In this document: piece after piece, positions 2,486 to 32,353 of the stretch
Layout: every line of letters begins with the position of its first letter
Position numbering within the stretch: the stretch's first letter is position 1
NCBI GenBank assembly: GCA_964613815.1
Contig: CAZTKG010000001.1
Location: forward strand, 200,895-264,894
Direction: 5' to 3'
Origin: an uncultured Gammaproteobacteria bacterium
GTDB taxonomy: Bacteria > Patescibacteriota > Patescibacteriia > UBA9934
DNA length: 64,000 bases
Translations under genes and position numbers: made by a program
The notes under the pieces: generated by a model
Told to the model about the DNA's origin: nothing
The model's database searches: none
The model's input: the letters and a program-made list of their open reading frames with translations, nothing else

Positions 2486-3528
2486 ATCTTTAGATCCAGC
2501 TCTTCCATGAGCTTTTTTTGTTTTCTTGAGAGCTTCTTTGGCGTTACGACGTTGATGATGACAATCTGATCTCCCGCCGATCGGCCAGACTGGACGCCCT
2601 TTCCGCGAAGGCGAAGCTGATCTCCTGGCTGTGTTCCTGCGGGAATTTTTAGTTTTACTGATCCCTCGACGGTATCCACACTTACCTCATCGCCAAGTGC
2701 TGCCTGTGTGAATCCAATAGCCTTTTCGACATAGAGATCATTTCCATGCCGCTCGAATCTTGCGTCGTCGGTTACGCGAATGCGAATATAGAGATCTCCA
2801 GCTGGGCCGAGACTTCCGATAGATTCACCCTGACCTCGCACGCGGATTTTTACTCCTGTTTCTACGCCTGCAGGAAAATCTACTCTTAGTGTTTTTGATG
2901 CATGCACCGTTCCTGAACCCGAGCATGTCCCGCATTTCTTTTCTGGCTTCTCCCCTCTTCCGTTGCAGCTTGAACAGGAGACCCGCGACTTCATTGCTCC
3001 GAGAATCGTGCGCTGTATTGTCTCCTGCACACCTGATCCGTTGCAGATCTCACAGTTCTTCAGGGCTGACTCTGGTTCCCCACCTGTTCCCGCGCATCGT
3101 TCGCAGTTATCGTTTTTTGATAGTGAAATCTCCTTTTCTACGCCGAAGACAGACTCTTTAAAACTGATCGTGACATCTATTTGGATATCTGATCCTGATC
3201 TAGACCTTCGACCACGCGTTCGTCCGCCAAAGAAATCTCCAAATATATCCCCCAAGTCCTCGAAATGCATTCCCTGGAATCCTTGACCAAATCCGCCCAT
3301 CCCGCCAAAACCTTGCCCTCCTGGCCCTGCGGATCCGAATTGGTCGTACTGAGACCGCTTTGAATCATCCGAAAGAACCTGGTAGGCCTCGTTTATTTCC
3401 TTAAACTTCTCCGCGTCACCGCCCTTGTCTGGATGATGCTTATGCGCGAGGTTGCGAAAAGCACGCTTCATCTCATCTTTTGAAGCGCCTTTTTCTACCC
3501 CTAGAGTTTTGTAATAGTCTTTTGACAT
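2482..3528 (-). CDS. dnaJ: Molecular chaperone DnaJ
   Basis: J-domain with HPD (KDYYKTLGV...HKHHPDK), Gly/Phe-rich linker, four CxxCxGxG zinc-finger repeats, C-terminal substrate-binding domain. Confidence 0.95.
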   Translation of the reverse strand: MSKDYYKTLGVEKGASKDEMKRAFRNLAHKHHPDKGGDAEKFKEINEAYQVLSDDSKRSQYDQFGSAGPGGQGFGGMGGFGQGFQGMHFEDLGDIFGDFFGGRTRGRRSRSGSDIQIDVTISFKESVFGVEKEISLSKNDNCERCAGTGGEPESALKNCEICNGSGVQETIQRTILGAMKSRVSCSSCNGRGEKPEKKCGTCSGSGTVHASKTLRVDFPAGVETGVKIRVRGQGESIGSLGPAGDLYIRIRVTDDARFERHGNDLYVEKAIGFTQAALGDEVSVDTVEGSVKLKIPAGTQPGDQLRLRGKGVQSGRSAGDQIVIINVVTPKKLSRKQKKLMEELDLKI

Positions 3529-3537
3529 GTTTATTGT

Positions 3538-3996
3538 CTATTCTGTGATATCTACGACCTCCGGCTTTTCGATTACGATGTAATCTTTATACTTCATCTC
3601 AATGGAGTCTGTGAGACTTCCTGCGTTGAAGGTGATCTCTTCGTTCTCTGATAGCCGCCCGTCCATGTAGGTCTTGAGGCCTATAATGGAGCCAAATGGC
3701 GGAACTGATCCTCTTACGCACCCGGTGACATCGACCGGGTCTTTTGCAAAGGACGTGCGCTCCCCGATGATCGCTCGAAGTTTCTTACTGTCCAAGCGAG
3801 GATCGGCTGGCATGACGCAGGGTATGTGCTCCTTTGTCTTATTTCCTCTGATAACCAATGCCTTTGCGCCCTGATGCATGTCCGTACCACGCACCTCTGA
3901 AGCCTGTGCGCTTGTGACGACTGGCTCATGGTGATGTGTGGTGTATTTCGCCCCGTGATCCTCGAGAGCTTGCTTGATCTTTTCGAATACCGTCAT
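3538..3996 (-). CDS. YbaK/ProX-type aminoacyl-tRNA deacylase domain protein
   Basis: 152 aa; resemblance to the YbaK/EbsC family (HEPVVTSAQASEVRG...KALVIRGNK...VPPFG). Sits inside the heat-shock operon between dnaK and dnaJ. Confidence 0.65.
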   Translation of the reverse strand: MTVFEKIKQALEDHGAKYTTHHHEPVVTSAQASEVRGTDMHQGAKALVIRGNKTKEHIPCVMPADPRLDSKKLRAIIGERTSFAKDPVDVTGCVRGSVPPFGSIIGLKTYMDGRLSENEEITFNAGSLTDSIEMKYKDYIVIEKPEVVDITE

Positions 3997-3997
3997 G

Positions 3998-4150
3998 TTA
4001 GTCGTTTTTTATGATTCTTGCTTTCACGTCAACAACTTTTTCCGCGGCCTTGCGCCTAGCTCTACGCCAAATGCGCTTTGCAATCTGTTTGAAGGTCCAT
4101 GCCGCGAGCGTGAATAGCCCGCGGCGGATCCATTTAAAGATGTTTGCCAT
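3998..4150 (-). CDS. Unannotated 50-aa small basic protein (MANIFKWIRRGLFTLAAWTFKQIAKRIWRRARRKAAEKVVDVKARIIKND)
   Basis: Hand-translated from ATG 4150..4148 to TAA 4000..3998. AGGAGG Shine-Dalgarno directly upstream (caggaggatATG). Fills the 169-nt gap between dnaK and the ybaK-like gene. Amphipathic, Trp/Arg-rich. Below the 60-aa cutoff of the ORF track. Confidence 0.4.
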   Translation of the reverse strand: MANIFKWIRRGLFTLAAWTFKQIAKRIWRRARRKAAEKVVDVKARIIKND

Positions 4151-4165
4151 ATCCTCCTGTTCCGA

Positions 4166-6094
<1,929 letters not shown>

Positions 6095-19250: not shown

Positions 19251-21302
19251 CTACTCTCCTGTCTTTTTGATCGGTGGGAGGGGTGAGATCTCGCCGCTTG
19301 GCCTTGACTTGGCCGGCGCAGCATTGCTCGTTTCAGACCTTGGTCGGCGATCTTCTTCTGGCTTTCGGCGTCTTCGGCGGCGCTTTCTTGGCTGTCTGCC
19401 CGCAGATTCTGATGAAGTCTGTGGCGACTTTTGATCCTGCTCTGGTTTTTCTTCCTGTTTTAGCACCGCCTCTTTTGGCCTGGGTTTTTCTTGGTCAAAT
19501 TTAAGAGGAGTTGGTGCATCTACAGGCCTTGATTCTTGTTTTGCGACTGGCTTTGATGTGGGCACCTTTCGAGGCTCTTTGCGCTCTTCTTTCTTATCTG
19601 CTGGCGCTGCTAATGCGGAAAGTGAGATACTCTCCCCCACTTTTCGCTCGATCGGCTTGCTGTTTTCGATCTTTGGCTGTGGAGCTAGCGCTGGACGGTC
19701 CTGTCGAGGCGGTCGATCGTTTCGTGGTCGATCTTCTCGTGGTCGATCCTGCCGGCCCTGATCGCTGCGCGGAGGCTTTTGATCTCGCCCTCGATCGCGT
19801 CCGCCTCCGCCCTTTCGCCCCTTTTCTCGCTCTGCCTTGATTTTAGGCATGCAGTCTTCGCAGTAGATTGGCCTTGATCTGTCGAGTTCAACCGGGAGCT
19901 GGAAGTTCTTTTTGCATCCTGAACAGTCGTACGCGTGCCCAAAGCGCTGCTTCTTCATCTCCTTCTTCTTTGTTTTTGCCTTGGCGTATTCGTCGTCCAA
20001 GTCCACATCTTTTCCAAAACCACTCCAAATAGCGACCTTTTCTTCGATCTTGGCTCGCGGCGTCGTGTAACGCTCGCGTGACTGAGCAATGACCCGCTCT
20101 TCCGAGCCTGTCTTTTGTGCGATTGGTGGGAGCGTTGCTGCGGAGAACGGCTGCGATGTGACGCCATCGATCATTAATTTAAGATAAATGTTGAACTTTG
20201 GGAGGTTGATGATGTCCTCCGGTGTGAACCGTGGGAGGAATTCGTCTTCCATGAACTTTGCATCTGGACCACCCACGCGGAATGCAATCAGGGTCCCGAC
20301 GTTTCCAAATACTGCGTCTCGCACCTCTTCCGTGAGTTGTGCGATATACTGGTGCGCCATGACAAGGTTGAGTTTGTATTTTCGCGCCTCAGATAAGATT
20401 GATGCGAATGACTCAACAGCAAAGTTTTGAAACTCATCAACGTAGAGATAAAAGTCTGTTCTATCATCTTTTGCAGTGTCGACACGTTCCATCGCGGACA
20501 TCTGGATCTTGGTGATAAGCATTCCTCCAAGGAGGCGAGACGCGTCCTCTCCAAGTCGCCCCTTTGAAAGGTTTACGATGAAGATTTTTTCCTCGTCCAT
20601 GATCTTTCGAACGTTGATGGAGGAATTTGCTTGCGCGACAATGTTTCGAATAATTGCTGCGGACAAAAACTGACCGACCTTGTTTTGAATCGGCGCTACC
20701 GCCTCGGTGGCGAATTTTTGTTGGTAGGAGGCGAACTCTTTGACCCAGAATTGTTTGACAATTGGATCTGTGACATTTGAGACGATTTCTTTTCTATAGA
20801 CCTCGTCTGAAAGCATGCGGTTGATGCCGAGGAGGGTTGTTCCAGGGTTGTCGATAAGGGCAAGAATGGCGTTGTTGAGGATGTATTCCATTCGTGCAGA
20901 CCAGACGCCTTCCCAGATTTTTTTGAAGACACTCATCATGCCCGCTGCGACGAGATGCTTCATGTTGGCGTCGACGGATTCGAGAATGTTGAATCCGACT
21001 GGATGTTCCAGGTCGCCTGGATTGAAGTAGACGACGTCGTTGATACGCCAGGATGGGATGTAGTCGAGGAGGAGCTCTGCCGTGTCTCCGTGTGGGTCGA
21101 CGTATGCACAGCCGTGGCCGGCGTAAATATCGGACAGGATCATGTTCTCGAGGAGCGTCGTCTTTCCCATGCCGGTTTTTCCGATGACGTAGGTGTGACG
21201 GCGGCGATCATCTGTTTTAATGCCAAATTTCCGCAAGGAGTTGCGGAAGTTTGTTTTGGCAAAATAGATAATGTCGTCTTCGTGTTCGTGCGGATATTGC
21301 AT
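19251..21302 (-). CDS. VirD4/TraD/TrwB-like coupling-protein ATPase with C-terminal zinc ribbon and Arg/Asp-rich tail
   Basis: Walker A VIGKTGMGKTT, Walker B FYLYVDEFQNF, sensor region VMAHQYIAQL. C-terminal CSGCKK...CEDC zinc-ribbon-like and an RDRGRDQKPPRSDQGRQDRPREDRPRNDRPPRQDRP low-complexity tail. Confidence 0.7.
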   Translation of the reverse strand: MQYPHEHEDDIIYFAKTNFRNSLRKFGIKTDDRRRHTYVIGKTGMGKTTLLENMILSDIYAGHGCAYVDPHGDTAELLLDYIPSWRINDVVYFNPGDLEHPVGFNILESVDANMKHLVAAGMMSVFKKIWEGVWSARMEYILNNAILALIDNPGTTLLGINRMLSDEVYRKEIVSNVTDPIVKQFWVKEFASYQQKFATEAVAPIQNKVGQFLSAAIIRNIVAQANSSINVRKIMDEEKIFIVNLSKGRLGEDASRLLGGMLITKIQMSAMERVDTAKDDRTDFYLYVDEFQNFAVESFASILSEARKYKLNLVMAHQYIAQLTEEVRDAVFGNVGTLIAFRVGGPDAKFMEDEFLPRFTPEDIINLPKFNIYLKLMIDGVTSQPFSAATLPPIAQKTGSEERVIAQSRERYTTPRAKIEEKVAIWSGFGKDVDLDDEYAKAKTKKKEMKKQRFGHAYDCSGCKKNFQLPVELDRSRPIYCEDCMPKIKAEREKGRKGGGGRDRGRDQKPPRSDQGRQDRPREDRPRNDRPPRQDRPALAPQPKIENSKPIERKVGESISLSALAAPADKKEERKEPRKVPTSKPVAKQESRPVDAPTPLKFDQEKPRPKEAVLKQEEKPEQDQKSPQTSSESAGRQPRKRRRRRRKPEEDRRPRSETSNAAPAKSRPSGEISPLPPIKKTGE

Positions 21303-21308
21303 AGGCGT

Positions 21309-22898
21309 CTACATTGGCAGATTTGTTGGCGTAGCTTGATCACGGTCAACTGGCTCGTCGCTAATGTCGAGTCCCGGAGGGAGCGGAGCTGGCATCCCTA
21401 CTTTTGGCATCCCTACGTGATCCTGCCTTGACTCTGGTGATTTCTTCTGGGCCTCCGCAATATCTTCCGTTTTGACCTCTTCTTGTTCTGAAGGACCTGT
21501 GGGCGCAGAAGGTGTTGGGACTGTCAGAGGACCTGATCTTACTCTTCTTTGCTTTTGCTTCGGCGCATCTGTTGGTGCCGCGTCTACATTTGGTAGCGTT
21601 GGAACGTCTTCCCCAGCGAAATCGAGATCCACAGGTGGCTCTGCGCGTCTTGCGCCAGTGACACGTAGGACAGGTGTTCGCGCGTCTGCTGCTGGGAAGT
21701 GGAACATGGTTGCAAGCTCTTCGCATGTGAGGATGTATGGCGTACAACCTGGACTGAATGAACGGCTCTGATAGCGCTTTGAGATCGTGCGCTGACGACC
21801 CGGCATCTGCCACTGCATCCAGAAGTAATCGTCTTTTGTGGTTGCTGGAACGTGGATGCCGAAGTTGTTCCAGCCCATGTGACGGTATTGGTGGAAGTAG
21901 CCTTTTGTCATGGCGGCGATCGTCCCTTTTCTGAATTGATCTTTGCGCGCCCAGTAGACAAACCGAACTTTTGACTTCCATCCGAGGGTTTCTAGCTTCT
22001 TTTGGATGCCATCGATCTCCGTCCGTTCTTCTGGCGTGATCTTGAACATTTTGAAATTGTCCTCTTCCGCACCACCCTCGCTTCCCGGCAGCTTAATACC
22101 AAGTGTATCTTCTAGAATCCCACTGACTAACCAGCCTATTGTTTTCTGATAAAATGACTTCTTTTTCTGCTTTGCCTTTCCATATAAGTCGTCGATTCTT
22201 TCGGCCCCCTTGTCCCGCCAATGCTGCTCGTTTGGCTGCATTATGATGAGCTGCATCCAATAGTGCTCGTGGGACTTCATGCGCCCCATTAACTCGAAGA
22301 GCGTGAGCATTGGGTCCTTGAATCGGCCGTCTTTCTCGCCTTGATGCTCGAACATCTCGTACGTCTTGATTGGGAGATAACTAGGCTTTCGAAGCACCAT
22401 CTCTGATCCGAAAAGATCGTATTCCTCTTGTGGCCATTCGGTTGGGATCTTTTTGGTGTAGTCTTCTACTTCTAGGAACTGTGCCTCTGGGTACTGTGCG
22501 TAGAACGCCCCTTGAATGAGGTCAATGTATTTCTGATCAGTTCGAACGTAAAAGCGGATATCTCCTCCGCTACCAGCGATTTCAAATGAAAATATTGCTT
22601 GAAATTTTCCATAGAAATTTGCCTCTTTCCAGGTGATGGATGACTTACTTCCAGCAATTTGCTTGAAGAAGTTTACCATTCCCATTGGGGACTGCATGGA
22701 ATCTGGCGGGACGTGGATTTCGTAGAGATGCCACTTGCGCTTCATGGCAAACTGATCCTGCTTTCTGCCGACCCAGACCATCCAGAACCCCTTGAGCATG
22801 ACCCAAAAAATCCCGACTGGGCCTAGGATGAAAAGCATGTATGCCAATATGACTTCTACTGGCGTGGAGATGAAGTAGCTCTTGATGAGTTCAAACAC
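21309..22898 (-). CDS. Hypothetical membrane protein, predicted partner of the VirD4-like ATPase
   Basis: 529 aa; two N-terminal TM helices, large soluble domain, Pro-rich C-terminus. Stop 6 nt before the ATPase start on the same strand. Confidence 0.55.
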   Translation of the reverse strand: MFELIKSYFISTPVEVILAYMLFILGPVGIFWVMLKGFWMVWVGRKQDQFAMKRKWHLYEIHVPPDSMQSPMGMVNFFKQIAGSKSSITWKEANFYGKFQAIFSFEIAGSGGDIRFYVRTDQKYIDLIQGAFYAQYPEAQFLEVEDYTKKIPTEWPQEEYDLFGSEMVLRKPSYLPIKTYEMFEHQGEKDGRFKDPMLTLFELMGRMKSHEHYWMQLIIMQPNEQHWRDKGAERIDDLYGKAKQKKKSFYQKTIGWLVSGILEDTLGIKLPGSEGGAEEDNFKMFKITPEERTEIDGIQKKLETLGWKSKVRFVYWARKDQFRKGTIAAMTKGYFHQYRHMGWNNFGIHVPATTKDDYFWMQWQMPGRQRTISKRYQSRSFSPGCTPYILTCEELATMFHFPAADARTPVLRVTGARRAEPPVDLDFAGEDVPTLPNVDAAPTDAPKQKQRRVRSGPLTVPTPSAPTGPSEQEEVKTEDIAEAQKKSPESRQDHVGMPKVGMPAPLPPGLDISDEPVDRDQATPTNLPM

Positions 22899-22941: not shown

Positions 22942-23844
22942 TTACGATGATTTCTTCGACGACTTCTTCTCCCACCAAACAAGGAGTGGACTTGCAAGAA
23001 ATAGAGAAGAGTATGCTCCGGAGAGGATCCCGATTATCAGCGCAAGAATGAATGATCGCGTTGTTTCTCCGCCGAAGAGGAAGATCGCGACCAGTACGAG
23101 TAAGGTTGTTACCGAGGTATTGATTGATCGAGCGAAGCTTTGCACCACTGACCTGTTTACAATATCTGCGAATGAGATATCTCGGTAACGATTGCCGATG
23201 AGGTTTTCTCGGGTTCTGTCGAATACTACGATCGTGTCGTTGATGGAGTACCCCATGATCGTGAGCAGCGCCGCGACGAATGCCGTGTCAACCTGGAAGC
23301 CGTAGAGGTGACCTAGGACAGCGAATGCGCCGATTGGGATAATGACATCGTGCACCGCTGCGACAATCGTGAGCAGCCCGTACTTCCATGAAGCGACTGG
23401 CTTTGAGACTTTTCGAAAAGCCCATGCTACGTAGAGGACGATTAAAATGAGGAGGAGGGCTACCGCAGAGATCGATGACTGGCGTAGCTCTTCGCCGATG
23501 ACTGGACCTACTGATTCGTATCGGAGTTCGTCAACTGCGCCAAATGAGGACTCTAGGGCGGCCAGGACATTGTCGTGGTCGTCTTGTGTGATGTTGCCGA
23601 ACCTTAGAATCGCCTCTGTTTCGCCAGATGCCTGCACGGTTGCCGGATAGCCGATGTTTTCTACTGTTGATCGGATCGTTGTGATGTCTACTTCGGATTC
23701 GAATGCGACCTCTAGAATACTTCCGCCCGTGAAGTCGATCCCCATGTTTAGGCCGAATGTTGCGATCGAGAAAATCGATAGCACGATGAGAGCAACCGAT
23801 ATGGTCAGCCAGGTTTTTGTGTTTTTGATTACCGCGATTGCCAT
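22942..23844 (-). CDS. secF: Protein translocase subunit SecF
   Basis: 300 aa, 6 TM, conserved SecF C-terminal half (IGYSINDTIVVFDRTREN); directly downstream of secD. Confidence 0.85.
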   Translation of the reverse strand: MAIAVIKNTKTWLTISVALIVLSIFSIATFGLNMGIDFTGGSILEVAFESEVDITTIRSTVENIGYPATVQASGETEAILRFGNITQDDHDNVLAALESSFGAVDELRYESVGPVIGEELRQSSISAVALLLILIVLYVAWAFRKVSKPVASWKYGLLTIVAAVHDVIIPIGAFAVLGHLYGFQVDTAFVAALLTIMGYSINDTIVVFDRTRENLIGNRYRDISFADIVNRSVVQSFARSINTSVTTLLVLVAIFLFGGETTRSFILALIIGILSGAYSSLFLASPLLVWWEKKSSKKSS

Positions 23845-23845
23845 A

Positions 23846-25870
23846 TTATGATGATTTCTTTTGGGACTCGCTCACTCCGTATAGCCACGTGGACTTCCCT
23901 ACCTTGAATGAACTTGTCCATTTTAAGAATACGCGCGTTACCAGGATCGCAGTGAGCATTGAGATAATAATTCCTACTGCCAGCGTTAGTGCGAAACCTT
24001 TAACAAAACTTGTTGCCATTGAAAAGAGAACGATGGAGGCGATAAGGGTTGTGAGGTTTCCGTCACGAATTGATGTCCATGCTCGGCGGAAGCCTTCGTC
24101 GATCGCTGTTGGGAGGTCTCTCCCGCTCTTTAACTCCTCTTTTAGACGCTCGAAGATCAGGACGTTGGCGTCAACCGCCATTCCAATGGAGAGAATGAAC
24201 CCTGCGATTCCTGCGAGGGTTATCGTGACACCTAGCCATTTGTAGAGTGTGAGGTTGATCGCGCTATATACGAAGAGTGCCATTACTGCCAGAAGACCGC
24301 AGAGTCTGTAGTAAGCGACCATAAAAATCGCGACGAGAGCGAAGCCAATCATCGCTGCCTTTAGGGACCGTTCTAGCGATGTTGCACCAAGGGTTGGGCC
24401 TACTGTTTGCTGACTGACGAGGTCGATAGCTACCGGCAGCGCACCTGCGTTTAGGCGCATTGCGAGTAATTTCGACTCTTCTAGCGTGAAGTTTCCGGAG
24501 ATCGTTGCTTGGCCGCCGTAGATTGCCTCTTGGACGACAGGGATCGAGATCGGCTCTCCGTCTAGGAAGATAGCAATAACTTCCCCAACGCGTGATTCTG
24601 TGAGTTGCTGGAACAGCTCTCCACCCTCCGCATTGAAGTCCATGACAACATATGGAAGACCTGTGTTTGGGTCAAAAGCTACTGATGCTTGATTGATGTG
24701 TTCTCCTGATAGCTCTGTGTTTTCCCAAGCTGCGTCGCCGCCGATAAGGTCGAGAATGGTCGTCCACGGCATTTCGATATGGGCGATATTGTAGGTATAG
24801 ATCGGGCTGGATGATTGACGGTAGATGATGTGATAACCGAAGTCTGTTTCGATTACGCCTGAGATTGATCCGTCTGAGATGGCAAATAATGCATCCTCGA
24901 AGTCTTGGACCATTTGACCTCTCTGAACAAGACCTAAGCTTCCTCCATCTTCTGCACTTGGGCCGTCTGATTTTTCTGTTGCGGTTGCGGCGAAATTTGC
25001 TACTGACACGTCACGCGCGATTTCTTCCGCGAGGAGCTGAGCCTCTACTTTTGAACGGTCGTTGTCGCAGCGCAATGACTCTGCGTGACACACGAGGATA
25101 TGCGAAGCCTCGATTGCAGCATCCTCGACTCGCTCCGTGTAGTTCACGATGTGCATTGAAGAGCCTGACTCATAGAGACCGTTAATGACTCCCGGCTGGA
25201 TGTTTTCTGTCGTGATTTGATTGATGAGCTCTCCGAAAATCGGGCCAGCGTTGTCTAGGTTTTCGATGATACCACCCTCTAATGAGGTTGATCTATCGAT
25301 TGAAAATTCATCTACCAGTGAAGAGAAGTCTTCTCCTGCTAGCGCTCTGTCTAGAACCGCAAGAGCCGATGCTTCTTCTGTGATGTTTGCTGTGTCGATG
25401 ATTGATTGCTGATCCTCTGTAGCGAGTACCTCAGTCTCTCTTGGAATTTTGAATTCAAGGATTGGGGTTTCGCCTATTTGAGCGATTGCCTCTGAGACGT
25501 CGAAAATACCTGCTAGCTCGATGATGATGCGATAATTACCGCCGCCGAGCTGGGTCTGGACGAGCGGTTCTGCGACACCAAATGCGTCTACGCGGCGTTC
25601 GATGACGTCTCGGACACCTTCTAGCGCGCTCTCTCGTTCGCCCTCGTCGATCGCAGACATGTCCGCGTCGTAAACGAGATGAGCTCCGCCCTGGAGATCG
25701 AGTCCGAGCTTGAATTCCTCCTCGTTCAGCGTAACTGCCGGGATGCCGATCGCGTTAAAGAACGTGTTCCACGTCTTTGGGAATGCGATAGATGCAGTAA
25801 ATAAGAACAGCAAAACGATTGCTGCAACGCCTAAGTTTAGGTTTCTTTTTGAAGATTGTTTTTTTGCCAT
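23846..25870 (-). CDS. secD: Protein translocase subunit SecD with an inserted PpiC/parvulin-type PPIase domain
   Basis: SecD P1-head start (LGLDLQGGAHLVY) and C-terminal TM bundle (IDEGFRRAWTSIRDGNLTTLI...). A parvulin-like segment (ASHILVCHAES...GGSLGLVQRGQMVQDFEDALF...FGYHIIY) is embedded in the periplasmic region. Start moved to the internal ATG 25870 (MAKKQSSKRN...); the 73-aa upstream extension looks non-coding. Confidence 0.8.
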   Translation of the reverse strand: MAKKQSSKRNLNLGVAAIVLLFLFTASIAFPKTWNTFFNAIGIPAVTLNEEEFKLGLDLQGGAHLVYDADMSAIDEGERESALEGVRDVIERRVDAFGVAEPLVQTQLGGGNYRIIIELAGIFDVSEAIAQIGETPILEFKIPRETEVLATEDQQSIIDTANITEEASALAVLDRALAGEDFSSLVDEFSIDRSTSLEGGIIENLDNAGPIFGELINQITTENIQPGVINGLYESGSSMHIVNYTERVEDAAIEASHILVCHAESLRCDNDRSKVEAQLLAEEIARDVSVANFAATATEKSDGPSAEDGGSLGLVQRGQMVQDFEDALFAISDGSISGVIETDFGYHIIYRQSSSPIYTYNIAHIEMPWTTILDLIGGDAAWENTELSGEHINQASVAFDPNTGLPYVVMDFNAEGGELFQQLTESRVGEVIAIFLDGEPISIPVVQEAIYGGQATISGNFTLEESKLLAMRLNAGALPVAIDLVSQQTVGPTLGATSLERSLKAAMIGFALVAIFMVAYYRLCGLLAVMALFVYSAINLTLYKWLGVTITLAGIAGFILSIGMAVDANVLIFERLKEELKSGRDLPTAIDEGFRRAWTSIRDGNLTTLIASIVLFSMATSFVKGFALTLAVGIIISMLTAILVTRVFLKWTSSFKVGKSTWLYGVSESQKKSS

Positions 25871-25935: not shown

Positions 25936-25965
25936 AAAGGCTCCCAGGATGGTTACTGGGAGTTG
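25936..25965 (-). terminator. Rho-independent terminator of the 25953..26645 gene
   Basis: On the minus strand ctcccagtaaccatcctgggag followed by cctttttttc. Confidence 0.5.
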
Positions 25966-26645
25966 ATGCGGAACTGGAGTGGATAGGTGACCGTGAGCTC
26001 GTAGGGGTCGAATGTGGGTGAGGTACGTCGAGCCTCACGAACCGCCTTATCCCTGCTTTTTTCGATGTGCGCCCGGGTGTTTTCCGCATTTGCTCCTTCG
26101 AGTAGGAGTGCGTATTTTCTATTCACCCTCTGCACCTCACTTTGACGCTCCCTCCAGACTTGTTCGTCGACCTCTTCTTGATGATCGTCCATCCGAGGGA
26201 AGTGAATCGACTCAAAGACGTCCGCCATACATTCCGTTGCGTCACCCGCCCTGATGTCGGAGCCATACACCCAAGCGACTCGGACACCTCCCCCTTGAGT
26301 TACGACGAAGCGGATCGCTACCGTTGTCACCGTTTTACGTTCGGACTCAGGGTGCATCTCGAAACAGTCGAGAAGTTCCGGCATGCGCGTGATGACGTAA
26401 ACGCTGATGTTTGAGAGCTCTCGCTGCGTTTCCGTATATGGAAACGAAGCTGAAACGATTCCGATCTCTGCAAAGAGAGACCCGACCTCTCCCCAATCGC
26501 GCGTGTAGGATTCGCCTGTTGGGTCGATGAGCTCTTGCGCTGACTTCTCCGGCAGGGACATCCATTTCGCCATCCCCTTTTCTGATGACGTACCTTGAGA
26601 TGCTGCCGCGCTGATGATGAACCAAAAAAGAACAAGAAGATTCAC
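25953..26645 (-). CDS. Hypothetical secreted protein
   Basis: 230 aa with signal peptide MNLLVLFWFIISAAAS. No recognisable domain. Confidence 0.45.
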   Translation of the reverse strand: MNLLVLFWFIISAAASQGTSSEKGMAKWMSLPEKSAQELIDPTGESYTRDWGEVGSLFAEIGIVSASFPYTETQRELSNISVYVITRMPELLDCFEMHPESERKTVTTVAIRFVVTQGGGVRVAWVYGSDIRAGDATECMADVFESIHFPRMDDHQEEVDEQVWRERQSEVQRVNRKYALLLEGANAENTRAHIEKSRDKAVREARRTSPTFDPYELTVTYPLQFRINSQ

Positions 26646-29629: not shown

Positions 29630-32353
29630 CTATTTCCCGCAACACTGCTTATACTTCTTTCCACTTCCACACGTGCATGGCTTGTTGCGCCCAGTTTTCT
29701 GATCTGCGGATTTGATGATTGCCGCTGCTGCCCCCATTGTCTTCCTTGCTCCAGCAAACTGTAGGCGCGCTTTTTCTAGAATTGATGGCGCGAGCTTGAT
29801 CACCTGCTGGGCCTTGAGCGTCTGCCCGAGGATTTTGAAGATGTTGTAGACCACTTCTCGACGAATGGATTGCTGAAGGGCGCTGAAGTGCTCAAATGCC
29901 TCGCGCTTGTACTCAACGAGTGGGTCGCGCTGACCATATCCTCGAAGACCGATTGATCTACGAAGATAAGTCATTGTGTCGAGATGACTGACCCAGGCGT
30001 TGTCGATTGAACGGAGAATGACTCCCTTTTCTAACTTCTTGAGCTGACTCTTGTCTTCAAATGCTTCCTCCGCCTTGTCGAGGCGCGTGTTTATGACAAC
30101 CATCGTCCCCTCGATGACCTCTGTGCGAATTTCTGCAAGACGCTCTTTGTCCTTTGGAATTTCTGGAAGCGCTGTTTTGATTTTTCCTGCGAGCTCTTCT
30201 GGCAATACTGTAATCGTACCAAGTGCTTCTATGATTTCTTTTGGGTCCCAATCTCCTCGGTTTTTTTCTTGGAACTCCTTTGGTACATCATCTGTCGCTT
30301 CTGTGGTGTGAAAATGGACGATGCGTTCCACCTCGGCCTCAATCATGCTTGAGATTTCTTTTTTGGCGTCAAACTCGTCGTCTTTTACCATCTCTCGCCG
30401 CTTGTCGTAGATACCTGTCCGGTGTTTGTTTAGGACATCATCGTAGTCGAGGAGATGTTTTCGCACGTCAAAGTTGCGGCCCTCAACGCGGGACTGGGAC
30501 TTTTCTAGGGTCTTGGAGATAATCTTACTTTCGATTGGTACAGTCTCTTCAACTCTGAGGGTGTCCATGACTTTTGCGACGCGGTCACCTCCGAAGATAC
30601 GCATGAGGTCATCTTCTAACGATACGTAAAATTGTGTTGTTCCAGGATCCCCCTGACGACCGGCTCGCCCTCTAAGCTGGTTGTCGATCCGCCGCGATTC
30701 GTGCCGTTCGGTTCCGATGACGTGCAGGCCGCCGAGATCTTTGACCTCTTGTTGCTCTTCTGACGTAGATGGGTTCCCTCCGAGGACAATGTCGACTCCA
30801 CGTCCTGCCATATTTGTTGCGACGGTTATTGATCCTTTTTTTCCTGCCTGGGCGATGATCTGACCCTCGCGTTCGTGATTCTTTGCGTTGAGCATCTCAA
30901 ATTTGAGACCGGCTTCCCTGAGCATGTTACCGATGAGCTCGTTCTTTTCGATGGAGGCGGTTCCGATGAGGACGGGCTGCCCCCTTTCCTGACGTTCTTT
31001 TGCTTCTGCGATGATACTCATGAGCTTTCCGCGCTCGGTCTTGTAGACGCGGTCAGCGCTATCATTTCTCGCAATTGGTTTATTTGTTGGAATAACGAGA
31101 ACATCTAGATCATAAATCTTTGCAAACTCTTCTGCCTCCGTTGCCGCTGTTCCGGTCATTCCTGAGAGCTTCGTGTACATCCGAAAGTAATTTTGGAACG
31201 TGATCGTGGCGAGGGTCTTACTTTCTCGTTTGATTTCTACCCCCTCTTTTGCCTCGATCGCTTGGTGAAGACCCTCTGAATACCGACGACCTTCCATGAT
31301 GCGACCAGTGAATTCATCAACGATTTTTACTTGCCCCTCTTGGATGACGTAGTCCTTGTCTTTTCTAAAGACAGCGTGTGCCTTTAGCGCCTGCTCTGCG
31401 TGGTGGATGAGAGCGAGACCTCCTTCTGAGTAAAGGTTTTCTACGCCGAGCTTCTTCTCCATCTTTTCGATTCCAGCGTCGGTGAACGTTGCGACGCGCA
31501 TTTTTTCGTCGATGTTGAAGTCCTCATCTTCTTTGAGGTCCTGCGCGATGCCTGCGAATTTGTAGTACATCTCGCCAGACTCTTCTGCCGGGGCACTGAT
31601 GATAAGCGGCGTTCTCGCCTCGTCGATGAGGATAGAGTCGATTTCGTCGATGATAGCGTAGTTTAGGTCGCGCTGAACCATGCGCTCCTTGGTTGGCGCC
31701 ATATTGTCACGAAGATAGTCGAAGCCGAATTGGTTGTTTGTGCCGTAAGTGATGTCGGCGTTGTAGGCATCTGCTCGCTCAGCTGGACGAAGGTAGTCCA
31801 TCTGGACTTTGAATGAGCCTGTGTTGTTTTGGTCTTGATGATCTTCTGCCTTCCAGGACTCGTCGTAGATGTAGCCACCTTCCTGCTGAATGCAGCCAAT
31901 GGAGAGACCGAGGAACGCGAATACCTGCCCCATCCACACAGCGTCACGCTTCGCTAGGTAGTCGTTTACGGTGATGAGGTGTACGCCTTTTTCTGACAGG
32001 GCGTTTAGGTATGTCGAAAGTGTTGACGTGAGCGTTTTCCCTTCTCCGGTGCGCATTTCTGCGATCATGCCGCGGTGCATGGAGAGCCCGCCGATGATTT
32101 GGACGTCGTAGTGGCGTTGACCGAGAGTTCGCATACCAGCCTCTCGCACGACAGCAAAGGCTTCGTAGGCAATGTCGTCTAGGGTTTTGCCGTTTTTGAT
32201 TGCTGTTTTGAATTCTTCTGTTTTTGCCTTGAGTTGGTCGTCTGATAGTGCCTTGATGCCTGATTCTAGGGCATTTACCTGTTCTACCTCTTCTCGTAGG
32301 GACTTGAGAAGCTTTTTATTGGGGTCTCCGAAGATTTTGGTGAGGATGCTCAT
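29630..32353 (-). CDS. secA: Preprotein translocase ATPase SecA
   Basis: 907 aa; DEAD-motor motifs, preprotein cross-linking and helical scaffold domains, C-terminal zinc-binding tail CTCGSGKKYKQCCGK. Confidence 0.97.
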   Translation of the reverse strand: MSILTKIFGDPNKKLLKSLREEVEQVNALESGIKALSDDQLKAKTEEFKTAIKNGKTLDDIAYEAFAVVREAGMRTLGQRHYDVQIIGGLSMHRGMIAEMRTGEGKTLTSTLSTYLNALSEKGVHLITVNDYLAKRDAVWMGQVFAFLGLSIGCIQQEGGYIYDESWKAEDHQDQNNTGSFKVQMDYLRPAERADAYNADITYGTNNQFGFDYLRDNMAPTKERMVQRDLNYAIIDEIDSILIDEARTPLIISAPAEESGEMYYKFAGIAQDLKEDEDFNIDEKMRVATFTDAGIEKMEKKLGVENLYSEGGLALIHHAEQALKAHAVFRKDKDYVIQEGQVKIVDEFTGRIMEGRRYSEGLHQAIEAKEGVEIKRESKTLATITFQNYFRMYTKLSGMTGTAATEAEEFAKIYDLDVLVIPTNKPIARNDSADRVYKTERGKLMSIIAEAKERQERGQPVLIGTASIEKNELIGNMLREAGLKFEMLNAKNHEREGQIIAQAGKKGSITVATNMAGRGVDIVLGGNPSTSEEQQEVKDLGGLHVIGTERHESRRIDNQLRGRAGRQGDPGTTQFYVSLEDDLMRIFGGDRVAKVMDTLRVEETVPIESKIISKTLEKSQSRVEGRNFDVRKHLLDYDDVLNKHRTGIYDKRREMVKDDEFDAKKEISSMIEAEVERIVHFHTTEATDDVPKEFQEKNRGDWDPKEIIEALGTITVLPEELAGKIKTALPEIPKDKERLAEIRTEVIEGTMVVINTRLDKAEEAFEDKSQLKKLEKGVILRSIDNAWVSHLDTMTYLRRSIGLRGYGQRDPLVEYKREAFEHFSALQQSIRREVVYNIFKILGQTLKAQQVIKLAPSILEKARLQFAGARKTMGAAAAIIKSADQKTGRNKPCTCGSGKKYKQCCGK

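Follow-up and report, generated by a model that had tools for sequence, protein, structure and literature searches.

A SecD of the Patescibacteria with a two-parvulin module built into its P1 head

We analyzed a 64,000-nucleotide stretch of DNA (the window; positions 200,895 to 264,894 of contig CAZTKG010000001.1, assembly GCA_964613815.1) from an uncultured bacterium that is assigned to the Patescibacteriota by its GTDB lineage. On the minus strand, the window holds the translocon gene secD, whose product begins with MAKKQSS, and next to it secF (Table 1). The preliminary description of this locus, made from the sequence alone, had proposed that this SecD carries a parvulin-type peptidyl-prolyl isomerase (PPIase) domain in its extracytoplasmic P1 region. 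This proposal is borne out by Pfam and NCBIfam profiles, by alignment to solved SecDF structures, by two AlphaFold models and their Foldseek comparison and by the 240 nearest database proteins. We regard it as practically assured that the protein is a SecD with a parvulin module built into the extracytoplasmic P1 region, inside the P1 head. The module comprises two parvulin-like domains, termed PA and PB in the following.

Table 1 Features of the secD-secF locus and of the SecD protein. Positions refer to the window, residues to the 674-residue SecD.
Feature	Residues	Window position	Strand	Description and basis
secD		23846-25870	minus	674 residues plus stop codon, parvulin module inside; translation of the open reading frame (ORF), TIGR01129 match, same call on 12 contigs
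secF		22942-23844	minus	300 residues; begins one base past the secD stop codon; TIGR00966
First transmembrane helix (TM1)	8-30	25781-25849	minus	AlphaFold helix at model positions 7-28; topology according to solved SecDF structures (PMC5974789)
GG motif and N-terminal P1 base	53-143	25442-25714	minus	Pfam Sec_GG 53-73, SecD_1st 85-143; Thermus SecDF 30-123
Insert	144-386	24713-25441	minus	Two-parvulin module (243 residues); alignment to solved SecDFs, insert-only AlphaFold model
PA	152-247	25130-25417	minus	Degenerate parvulin-like domain, alpha1 to beta4 without leading beta1; Pfam Rotamase
PB	248-352	24815-25129	minus	Pin1-loop-type parvulin; Pfam Rotamase, Foldseek to the Pin1 PPIase domain
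Trailing strand	356-368	24767-24805	minus	PIYTYNIAHIEMP; putative displaced beta1 completing PA after PB; DSSP and relatives
P1 head remainder	384-480	24431-24721	minus	Pfam SecDF_P1_head, profile positions 18-114 of 114; Thermus from 160
Transmembrane bundle TM2-TM6	483-651	23918-24424	minus	Pfam SecD_SecF_C; AlphaFold helices 491-652

Outside the insert, the protein has the features by which a SecD is recognized, namely the profile score, TM1 followed by the P1 region and five further transmembrane helices with the TM4 aspartate, and an adjacent secF. The NCBIfam secD profile TIGR01129 (cut-off 244.4 bits) scored 368.6 bits, and its match falls into two stretches straddling the insert. Pfam assigned SecD_1st to residues 85-143 (E = 2.5e-15), SecDF_P1_head to residues 384-480 (E = 2e-29) and SecD_SecF_C to residues 483-651 (E = 9.7e-17), all exceeding their gathering scores. 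The TM4 aspartate D567 corresponds to D340 of Thermus ('gmavDanvlifer' versus 'gaavDgnvlsfer') and is invariant in 70/70 relatives; the product of secF reached 279.4 bits with the SecF profile TIGR00966, for which the cut-off is 160. Based on the profile score above cut-off, the retained TM4 aspartate and the adjacent secF, the SecD core appears intact and looks functional. According to the topology of solved SecDFs, the extracytoplasmic stretch reaches from TM1 to about residue 490, and its N-terminal P1-base part ends with the strand 'ILEFKI'. The segment GLDLQGGAHLVY, which had been taken for the start of the P1 head, is actually the SecD/F GG motif and thus marks the start of the P1 base.

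The reading frame could also be extended upstream to a longer in-frame ORF of 747 residues (to position 26089). We rejected this extension, as it is unsupported by the lengths of the homologues, which have 660-690 residues and align from the first residues of the query, and by the identical 674-residue product that independent gene callers reported on 12 contigs (JGI, ENA and Logan assemblies). The choice of frame also explains an offset in the preliminary description: the parvulin domain that it had located at residues of about 320-430 is indeed present, but this numbering fits the 747-residue ORF, and in the 674-residue protein the domain spans residues 248-352.

The position of the insert follows from the alignment to solved structures. 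Residues 50-149 of the query align to residues 30-124 of Thermus SecDF and residues 387-650 to residues 160-423; the alignment to Deinococcus SecDF shows the same break, and in E. coli SecD the head picks up again at residue 328 after a LEFRL strand that stops at 292, leaving the same gap of about 35 residues. Taken together, these alignments set about 35 residues in the canonical proteins against 243 in the studied SecD, in line with the earlier statement that this is not the textbook SecD. We also considered whether E. coli SecD has an insertion of its own at this site. This was rejected, since the residues by which it is longer are found at other sites and the gap between LEFRL and the head (292-328, about 35 residues) is as in Thermus. 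The parvulin had further been placed between the start of the P1 head and the transmembrane bundle; the insertion is extracytoplasmic as proposed, but it sits inside the P1 head and not between head and bundle.

Structure prediction agrees with this layout. The full-length AlphaFold2 model, built with 70 homologues, had a mean predicted local distance difference test score (pLDDT) of 85.7 and a predicted template modelling score (pTM) of 0.52, with values of 85-96 in the insert (this model and alignment A1 lack Met1, so that their numbering equals the protein numbering minus one). Foldseek with the full-length model ranked SecDF structures first (E about 1e-24). When the insert was modelled alone, it reached a pLDDT of 94.7 and a pTM of 0.81, and the latter value indicates that the insert forms one rigid unit. 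Among the relatives the insert evolves faster than the core (41-57% identity versus 53-67% for the whole protein). It holds 17 invariant positions, including the two catalytic-type histidines and the cysteine pair of PB.

PB is a canonical parvulin domain. Pfam matched Rotamase to residues 257-351 (E = 4.1e-26, 92.2 bits versus a gathering score of 21.7) and Rotamase_3 to residues 247-349 (E = 1.2e-26, 94.0 versus 22.5 bits). A search with the PpiC profile had been set beforehand as the result on which the parvulin claim could fail, and with a match of this significance the claim survives. The sequence hallmarks named for it were found as HILVCH at residues 257-262, GGSLG at 309-313 and FGYHIIY at 344-350. 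The strand order of PB is canonical, and its model superimposes on the PPIase domain of human Pin1 with a template modelling score of 0.83-0.87 and a root-mean-square deviation (rmsd) of 1.6-1.9 Å over 110 columns (Foldseek), so that the parvulin fold suggested earlier is also found in the predicted structure.

We mapped PB onto Pin1 using HMMER, which paired H257 with H59, C261 with K63, L266 with R68, R267 with R69 and C268 with P70 and, towards the end of the domain, D302 with D112, G303 with C113, T342 with T152 and H347 with H157. Residue conservation in both domains was assessed in an alignment of 70 relatives with a mean column identity of 44%. H257 and H347 are invariant in 70/70 relatives, and position 342 is T or S in all of them. 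At position 303, 45 relatives have D, 20 have G, four have E and one has C. As a G at 303 always comes with D or E at 302 ('S[DE]GP'), an acidic residue, or in one case Cys, is present at 302/303 in 70/70 relatives. Based on these residues, PB would most probably catalyse prolyl cis-trans isomerisation.

The loop between beta1 and alpha1 of PB differs from that of Pin1. C261 and C268 form a CX6C pair (window 25067-25090, minus strand) that is invariant in 70/70 relatives; by pattern, it was also found in 10/13 distant tandem forms and not in free tandem parvulins. A disulfide between these two residues is plausible outside the cell and may staple the loop that binds phosphate in Pin1. The basic cluster K63/R68/R69 of Pin1 is absent, its equivalents being C261/L266/R267 and the corresponding columns being C (70/70), rich in T/E/Q, and G/R/S. 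Specificity for phosphorylated substrates is therefore not expected of PB.

The preliminary description had recognized this one parvulin domain and overlooked a second, degenerate one in front of it (about residues 152-247), together with the unusual strand order. Scanned alone, PA gave a marginal Pfam Rotamase match of 23.1 bits against a gathering score of 21.7 (E = 1.5e-4) that covers profile positions 19-96 only; its first strand is therefore missing. In relatives two Rotamase stretches were scored, that is, both domains match. PA retains H240 in 63/70 relatives; it has no conserved equivalent of the threonine, and its GG.LG motif reads EGGIIEN in the studied protein. In the insert-only model PA has a pLDDT of 95-98, and the order of its secondary structure elements fits a parvulin with a displaced first strand. 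A direct BLASTP comparison of PA and PB was uninformative (E = 0.05). An assignment of residues 144-247 to a SurA_N/PrsA-like chaperone domain was rejected, as the region matches a degenerate parvulin and gave no SurA_N hit.

The question where the missing strand of PA comes from leads to the most unusual feature of the module. According to DSSP, two unbroken strands are present in both AlphaFold models, one (238-260) joining the last strand of PA to the first strand of PB (ASHILVC), the other (345-368) joining FGYHIIY of PB to the trailing strand PIYTYNIAHIEMP. The SecD strand 'ILEFKI' was rejected as first strand of PA, because the insert folds without it at a pLDDT of 94.7 and a pTM of 0.81, PA included (95-98). 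With ILEFKI absent from this model, the trailing strand is the only one left to complete the four-stranded sheet of PA. An arrangement in which each parvulin closes on itself by a beta4-beta1 hairpin is disfavoured by the models, in which strands 238-260 and 345-368 are unbroken. We therefore consider it very probable, judging from these models and from the relatives, that PA is a circularly permuted parvulin (alpha1 to beta4, then beta1) and that PB is nested in its beta4-beta1 connection. The two long strands would then form a continuous two-stranded ribbon across PA and PB.

The relatives provide further evidence for this order. Their trailing strand has the form xSHILIxT or xSRILxxT, with LHHILFRT, VSRILIKT and ASHIFIKN as examples from tandem forms, and H364 of this strand is retained in 51/70 relatives. 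In SecDs with a single parvulin, the order is helix alpha1, GGDLG, FGYHII, then xSHILIxT and from there back into the head. The His-Ile-Leu signature follows G-Y-H-I-I in 90/90 parsed single forms (88 strict and two with 'HIM') and precedes it in 0/90. Neither the single-parvulin SecDs nor, as proposed, PA show the canonical order from beta1 and alpha1 to beta4. Moving the trailing strand to the front and rescoring with Pfam Rotamase raised the score of one single form (L015) from 81.0 to 85.3 bits and its profile coverage from 9-95 to 1-95, and that of another (L020) from 74.4 to 79.2 bits and from 10-94 to 1-94. These gains of 4.3-4.8 bits match the 4.4 bits by which the native first strand of PB raises its score (74.4 to 78.8 bits).

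The parvulin-bearing SecD is not restricted to the studied genome. All 120 of the nearest clusters (90% identity clustering; 53-67% identical to the query) share the architecture, and their named members are listed as 'SecD' of Candidatus Uhrbacteria, Patescibacteria or Parcubacteria. In a search seeded with a single-form SecD, a Rotamase domain was likewise present in 120/120 of the proteins returned, 95 of them single and 25 tandem, so that all 240 closest database proteins of both searches carry a parvulin. To cover a wider range, we surveyed the SecD loci of 80 GTDB species-representative genomes. A tandem module was present in 13/80 (about 670-730 residues; labelled Uhrbacteria, Magasanikbacteria and 'Parcubacteria') and a single parvulin at the same site in 7/80 (about 565-610 residues; labelled Buchananbacteria, Kerfeldbacteria and Komeilibacteria). 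These 20/80 genomes are Patescibacteria, and their labels belong mostly to orders of the class ABY1, in which we also take Buchanan-, Komeili- and Falkowbacteria to be placed by GTDB. Uhrbacteria, Magasanikbacteria and Kerfeldbacteria fall into ABY1, and Nomurabacteria into Parcubacteria (PMC12577380). No parvulin was found in SecD of the remaining genomes of the 80, including Nomurabacteria, Saccharibacteria and all phyla outside the candidate phyla radiation (CPR). The fusion is thus a clade-wide trait rather than a one-off, and the insert is probably a synapomorphy of a branch of the Patescibacteria with occasional loss.

Some records carry titles that do not reflect this distribution. Parvulin-positive records with generic Patescibacteria labels or non-CPR titles are L001, L002, L006, L007, L012 and L018. 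Non-CPR titles on CPR-like SecD genes read 'uncultured Gammaproteobacteria' (L001, L006, L007, L012 and L026), 'Candidatus Binatia' (L002) and 'Lysobacteraceae' (L018), and all of these except L026 carry the module. Mislabelling or mis-binning may lie behind these titles, as may a real horizontal transfer. Some relatives have SecD and SecF joined in one chain that keeps the tandem insert, such as P0002 (978 residues) and a 1030-residue ORF of a Candidatus Magasanikbacteria contig (L008, 2851-5940).

Among 1.84 billion representatives searched with the insert only, 5 of the 150 best matches were SecD, and most were free proteins with several parvulins. The closest relatives of PB outside SecD are free secreted or lipoprotein-like proteins with 2-7 tandem parvulins of the Pin1-loop type at 40-50% identity (P0121, P0122, P0123, P0127, P0208 and others), which share with PB the loop type 'SHILI...(T)R(T/S)KEEA'. 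A natural origin of the permutation would be duplication and truncation of such a tandem-parvulin array, because a piece cut out of register (alpha1 to beta4, then beta1) is itself a permuted unit. In one of these free proteins, P0245, parvulins are combined with a caspase domain.

When compared with canonical SecD and SecDF proteins (Thermus thermophilus 3AQP/5YHF, Deinococcus radiodurans 5XAM/5XAN/5XAP and E. coli 5MG3), the studied protein shares TM1, the GG motif, base and head of P1, the six-helix RND-type bundle with the essential TM4 aspartate and the adjacent secF; the similarity to Thermus SecDF reaches E = 2e-81 at the sequence level. The solved SecDFs, however, have no insertion where the studied SecD has its double parvulin, namely directly past the LEF(K/R) strand near the beginning of the P1 head. 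With parvulins of the Pin1/PrsA type (PF00639/PF13616; Pin1 1PIN, S. aureus PrsA 2JZV), PB shares the fold, the long beta1-alpha1 loop, the helix start 'R(T/S)K.EA', both histidines, the threonine and the neighbouring acidic residue. In contrast to Pin1, it has no WW domain, carries the CX6C loop and is embedded in another parvulin instead of standing free. The single-parvulin SecDs (Buchanan-, Kerfeld-, Komeili- and Falkowbacteria; P0271, L015-L020 and L025) have their insert at the same site, in the permuted order and within the same Patescibacteria clade. They differ in having one parvulin only, an insert of about 142 residues and no CX6C loop, since the permutation breakpoint falls at the place of that loop.

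SurA has two tandem parvulins, of which P1 is inactive and P2 active. The insert resembles it in comprising tandem parvulins, one degenerate and one of catalytic type, in its extracytoplasmic location and as a presumed receiver of chains leaving SecYEG. Unlike SurA, PpiD and PrsA, the insert itself has neither signal peptide nor anchor and is a covalent part of SecD, and its two domains would be joined by the continuous two-stranded ribbon in a permuted strand order. On the whole protein, Pfam gave no hit to a SurA_N/trigger-factor-like domain or to any family besides Rotamase and the SecD families, and the NCBIfam models of SurA, PrsA and PpiC scored far below their cut-offs. Foldseek found no PDB entry matching the two-domain unit, the best being SurA at an rmsd of about 10-11 Å.

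Separate PPIases are known to dock on the same machinery. PpiD touches SecD's periplasmic domain and acts together with SecDF at a late stage of translocation (PMC9643414), and SurA binds the SecYEG-SecDF-YidC holotranslocon, with AlphaFold-supported modelling suggesting recruitment by the periplasmic domains of SecDF (PMC9987972). A dome built of PrsA-like PPIC proteins sits on SecDF-SecYEG in Mycoplasma (bioRxiv 10.1101/2025.04.25.650208 and 10.1101/2024.09.05.611430). The dome of Mycoplasma pneumoniae (Mpn444/436/489) and, as proposed, the SecD insert both place PPIC-type foldases directly above the Sec exit and touching SecDF, in a bacterium with a reduced genome that is wall-less or monoderm-like. 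Whereas the dome consists of separate lipoproteins forming a trimeric chamber, the insert is part of a single chain in the moving P1 head.

These comparisons suggest a function for the module. The P1 head of SecDF contains an amphiphilic cavity to which precursors cross-link, and it swings between a membrane-facing and an upright position (PMC5974789); this motion is coupled to proton flow via the TM4 aspartate and arginines of TM10/11 (PMC5974789). In the studied protein, SecD would act as a proton-driven accessory motor of the Sec system whose swinging P1 head bears a rigid module of two parvulins. The chain would leave the P1 head after 'ILEFKI', build PA from alpha1 onwards and run from the last strand of PA into PB, to return along the second long strand, which would supply the missing beta1 of PA, and re-enter the P1 head. 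As the chain enters and leaves where the beta1-alpha1 loop lining the active site is normally found, the cleft of the permuted domain should lie next to the head junction. Since the P1 head contacts emerging precursors and swings, the module would meet each exported chain leaving SecYEG, keep hold of it and catalyse the isomerisation of its prolyl bonds, as a covalent counterpart of PrsA, PpiD-YfgM or SurA docking on SecDF. In this process, PA is probably a scaffold or a substrate-binding surface. Overall, we find it rather probable that the module serves as a prolyl isomerase or chaperone fixed to the pulling head of the translocon. The earlier suggestion that export might thereby be coupled to prolyl isomerisation would be consistent with the catalytic-type residues in 70/70 relatives and with the published docking of PPIases on SecDF.

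A more far-reaching version of this proposal appears somewhat unlikely to us and is offered tentatively. The parvulin in SecD might represent a natural circularly permuted PPIase with its breakpoint in the beta1-alpha1 loop that lines the active site, so that its cleft would be welded to the precursor-binding head; the second parvulin of the tandem form would then sit on a rigid arm made of the beta-ribbon. If the stroke of the head drives the chain through the isomerase, the module would be a mechanically actuated foldase powered by protons, and it may replace free factors of the PrsA/PpiD type in a large branch of the Patescibacteria.

Several observations weigh against the proposed structure and function or limit what can be said of them. 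The trailing strand of the studied protein (IAHIEM) was not recognized as beta1 by Pfam, and moving it to the front brought no gain (22.8 versus 23.2 bits); given this, support for its role in the studied protein comes from the relatives and the models, and the strand pairing was deduced from DSSP strings and not from coordinates. In PB, the equivalent of Pin1 Cys113 is G303, with the acidic D302 one position earlier, a variant ('S[DE]GP') found in 20/70 relatives. The parvulin domains of PpiD and SurA P1 are inactive or dispensable in E. coli, and a conserved fold is therefore no proof of an enzymatic need. The 64-kb window, the sole stretch scanned for them, holds no free foldase genes of the PrsA/PpiD type. 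Finally, one metagenome-assembled genome of Candidatus Uhrbacteria (L013, JBDRNK010000061.1, locus 2884-4398) encodes a SecD without the module: its core is 63% identical to the query, and an acidic linker of about 50 residues replaces the insert. The module was probably lost secondarily here, and the case shows that SecD itself can do without the insert.

The main alternative is a non-enzymatic module, acting as a holdase or docking surface that enlarges the capture area or binds a partner such as a cell-wall, S-layer or pilus component. Isomerase activity would then be lacking or of no importance, as in the parvulin domain of PpiD and in SurA P1. The clear degeneration of PA (23 bits, no conserved threonine equivalent, EGGIIEN instead of GG.LG) would fit this alternative, as would the glycine at the Cys113 position of PB in the studied protein and the rigid two-domain unit (pTM 0.81), which resembles a structural arm. 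Parvulins with a purely structural role, however, usually lose their catalytic-type residues, whereas here both histidines, the Thr/Ser and the acidic residue (one Cys) at 302/303 are kept in 70/70 relatives although the surrounding columns average about 44% identity. The single-parvulin relatives keep the catalytic-type set as well, with the first histidine provided by the permuted strand in 90/90. In view of this retention, we consider a purely non-enzymatic role rather unlikely and prefer an isomerase or chaperone on the P1 head.

It is far less plausible that the insert is a tolerated passenger without selected function, consisting of parvulin repeats that drift in a permissive loop of the P1 head. 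Such drift could account for the lower conservation of the insert relative to the whole protein, for the loss of the module in one Uhrbacteria relative and for the degeneration of PA. It would not preserve the 17 invariant insert positions with the histidine and cysteine pairs of PB; moreover, the module is retained in all 240 nearest clusters and in several candidate orders, and both AlphaFold models are highly confident. The metagenome-type source genome and the additional 747-residue frame listed by the ORF finder might also suggest an assembly or gene-calling artefact joining a parvulin gene to secD, but we give this virtually no weight, as the parvulin occupies a central, in-frame position in P1 with SecD sequence on either side, the identical protein on 12 contigs of independent assemblies excludes a chimeric junction, and the same layout recurs in over 200 distinct homologues that come from many samples.

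In the open-access literature searched, we found no description of a SecD-parvulin fusion or of a circularly permuted parvulin. Both parts are well known; we found no paper on their combination, nested and permuted, within the moving motor head. Public databases do hold these proteins, labelled only 'SecD', and this annotation makes an extra function invisible. The architecture bears on how exported proteins pass from the Sec channel to folding factors, for which the docking of PpiD, SurA and PrsA-like proteins on SecDF is non-covalent. Being fixed in hundreds of Patescibacteria lineages, this covalent chimera of SecD and parvulin provides natural evidence for the P1 head as a hand-over point and offers a simple 1:1 system for its structural study. 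It also points to genome economy in ultra-small bacteria, with motor and foldase in one polypeptide, and the permuted strand order and the nesting of a domain in a domain in a domain are relevant to protein evolution and engineering. Were the chain fed through the isomerase by the power stroke, the catalysis of folding would be coupled to energy in a place outside the cytoplasm that has no ATP.

Finally, we looked at the neighbouring genes; those given here with window positions lie on the minus strand. A secA gene (window 29630-32353) encodes a protein of 907 residues in which all SecA domains are present, the SEC-C zinc motif among them; as it lies 3.7 kb upstream of secDF, the region can be regarded as a loose Sec gene cluster. 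Directly downstream of secF follow a gene for a DUF8128 protein of 529 residues (window 21309-22898) and, next to it, a gene for a VirD4/TraG-like type IV coupling ATPase of 683 residues (window 19251-21302). This ATPase has a treble-clef zinc-finger match and a basic, low-complexity tail of about 200 residues rich in Pro, Arg and Lys. Between secD and a gene with a tRNA_bind domain lies an ORF of 230 residues without a Pfam match (window 25953-26645), which overlaps the spurious upstream extension of secD; of the three contig copies displayed, two (L081 and L082) have it called as a gene.

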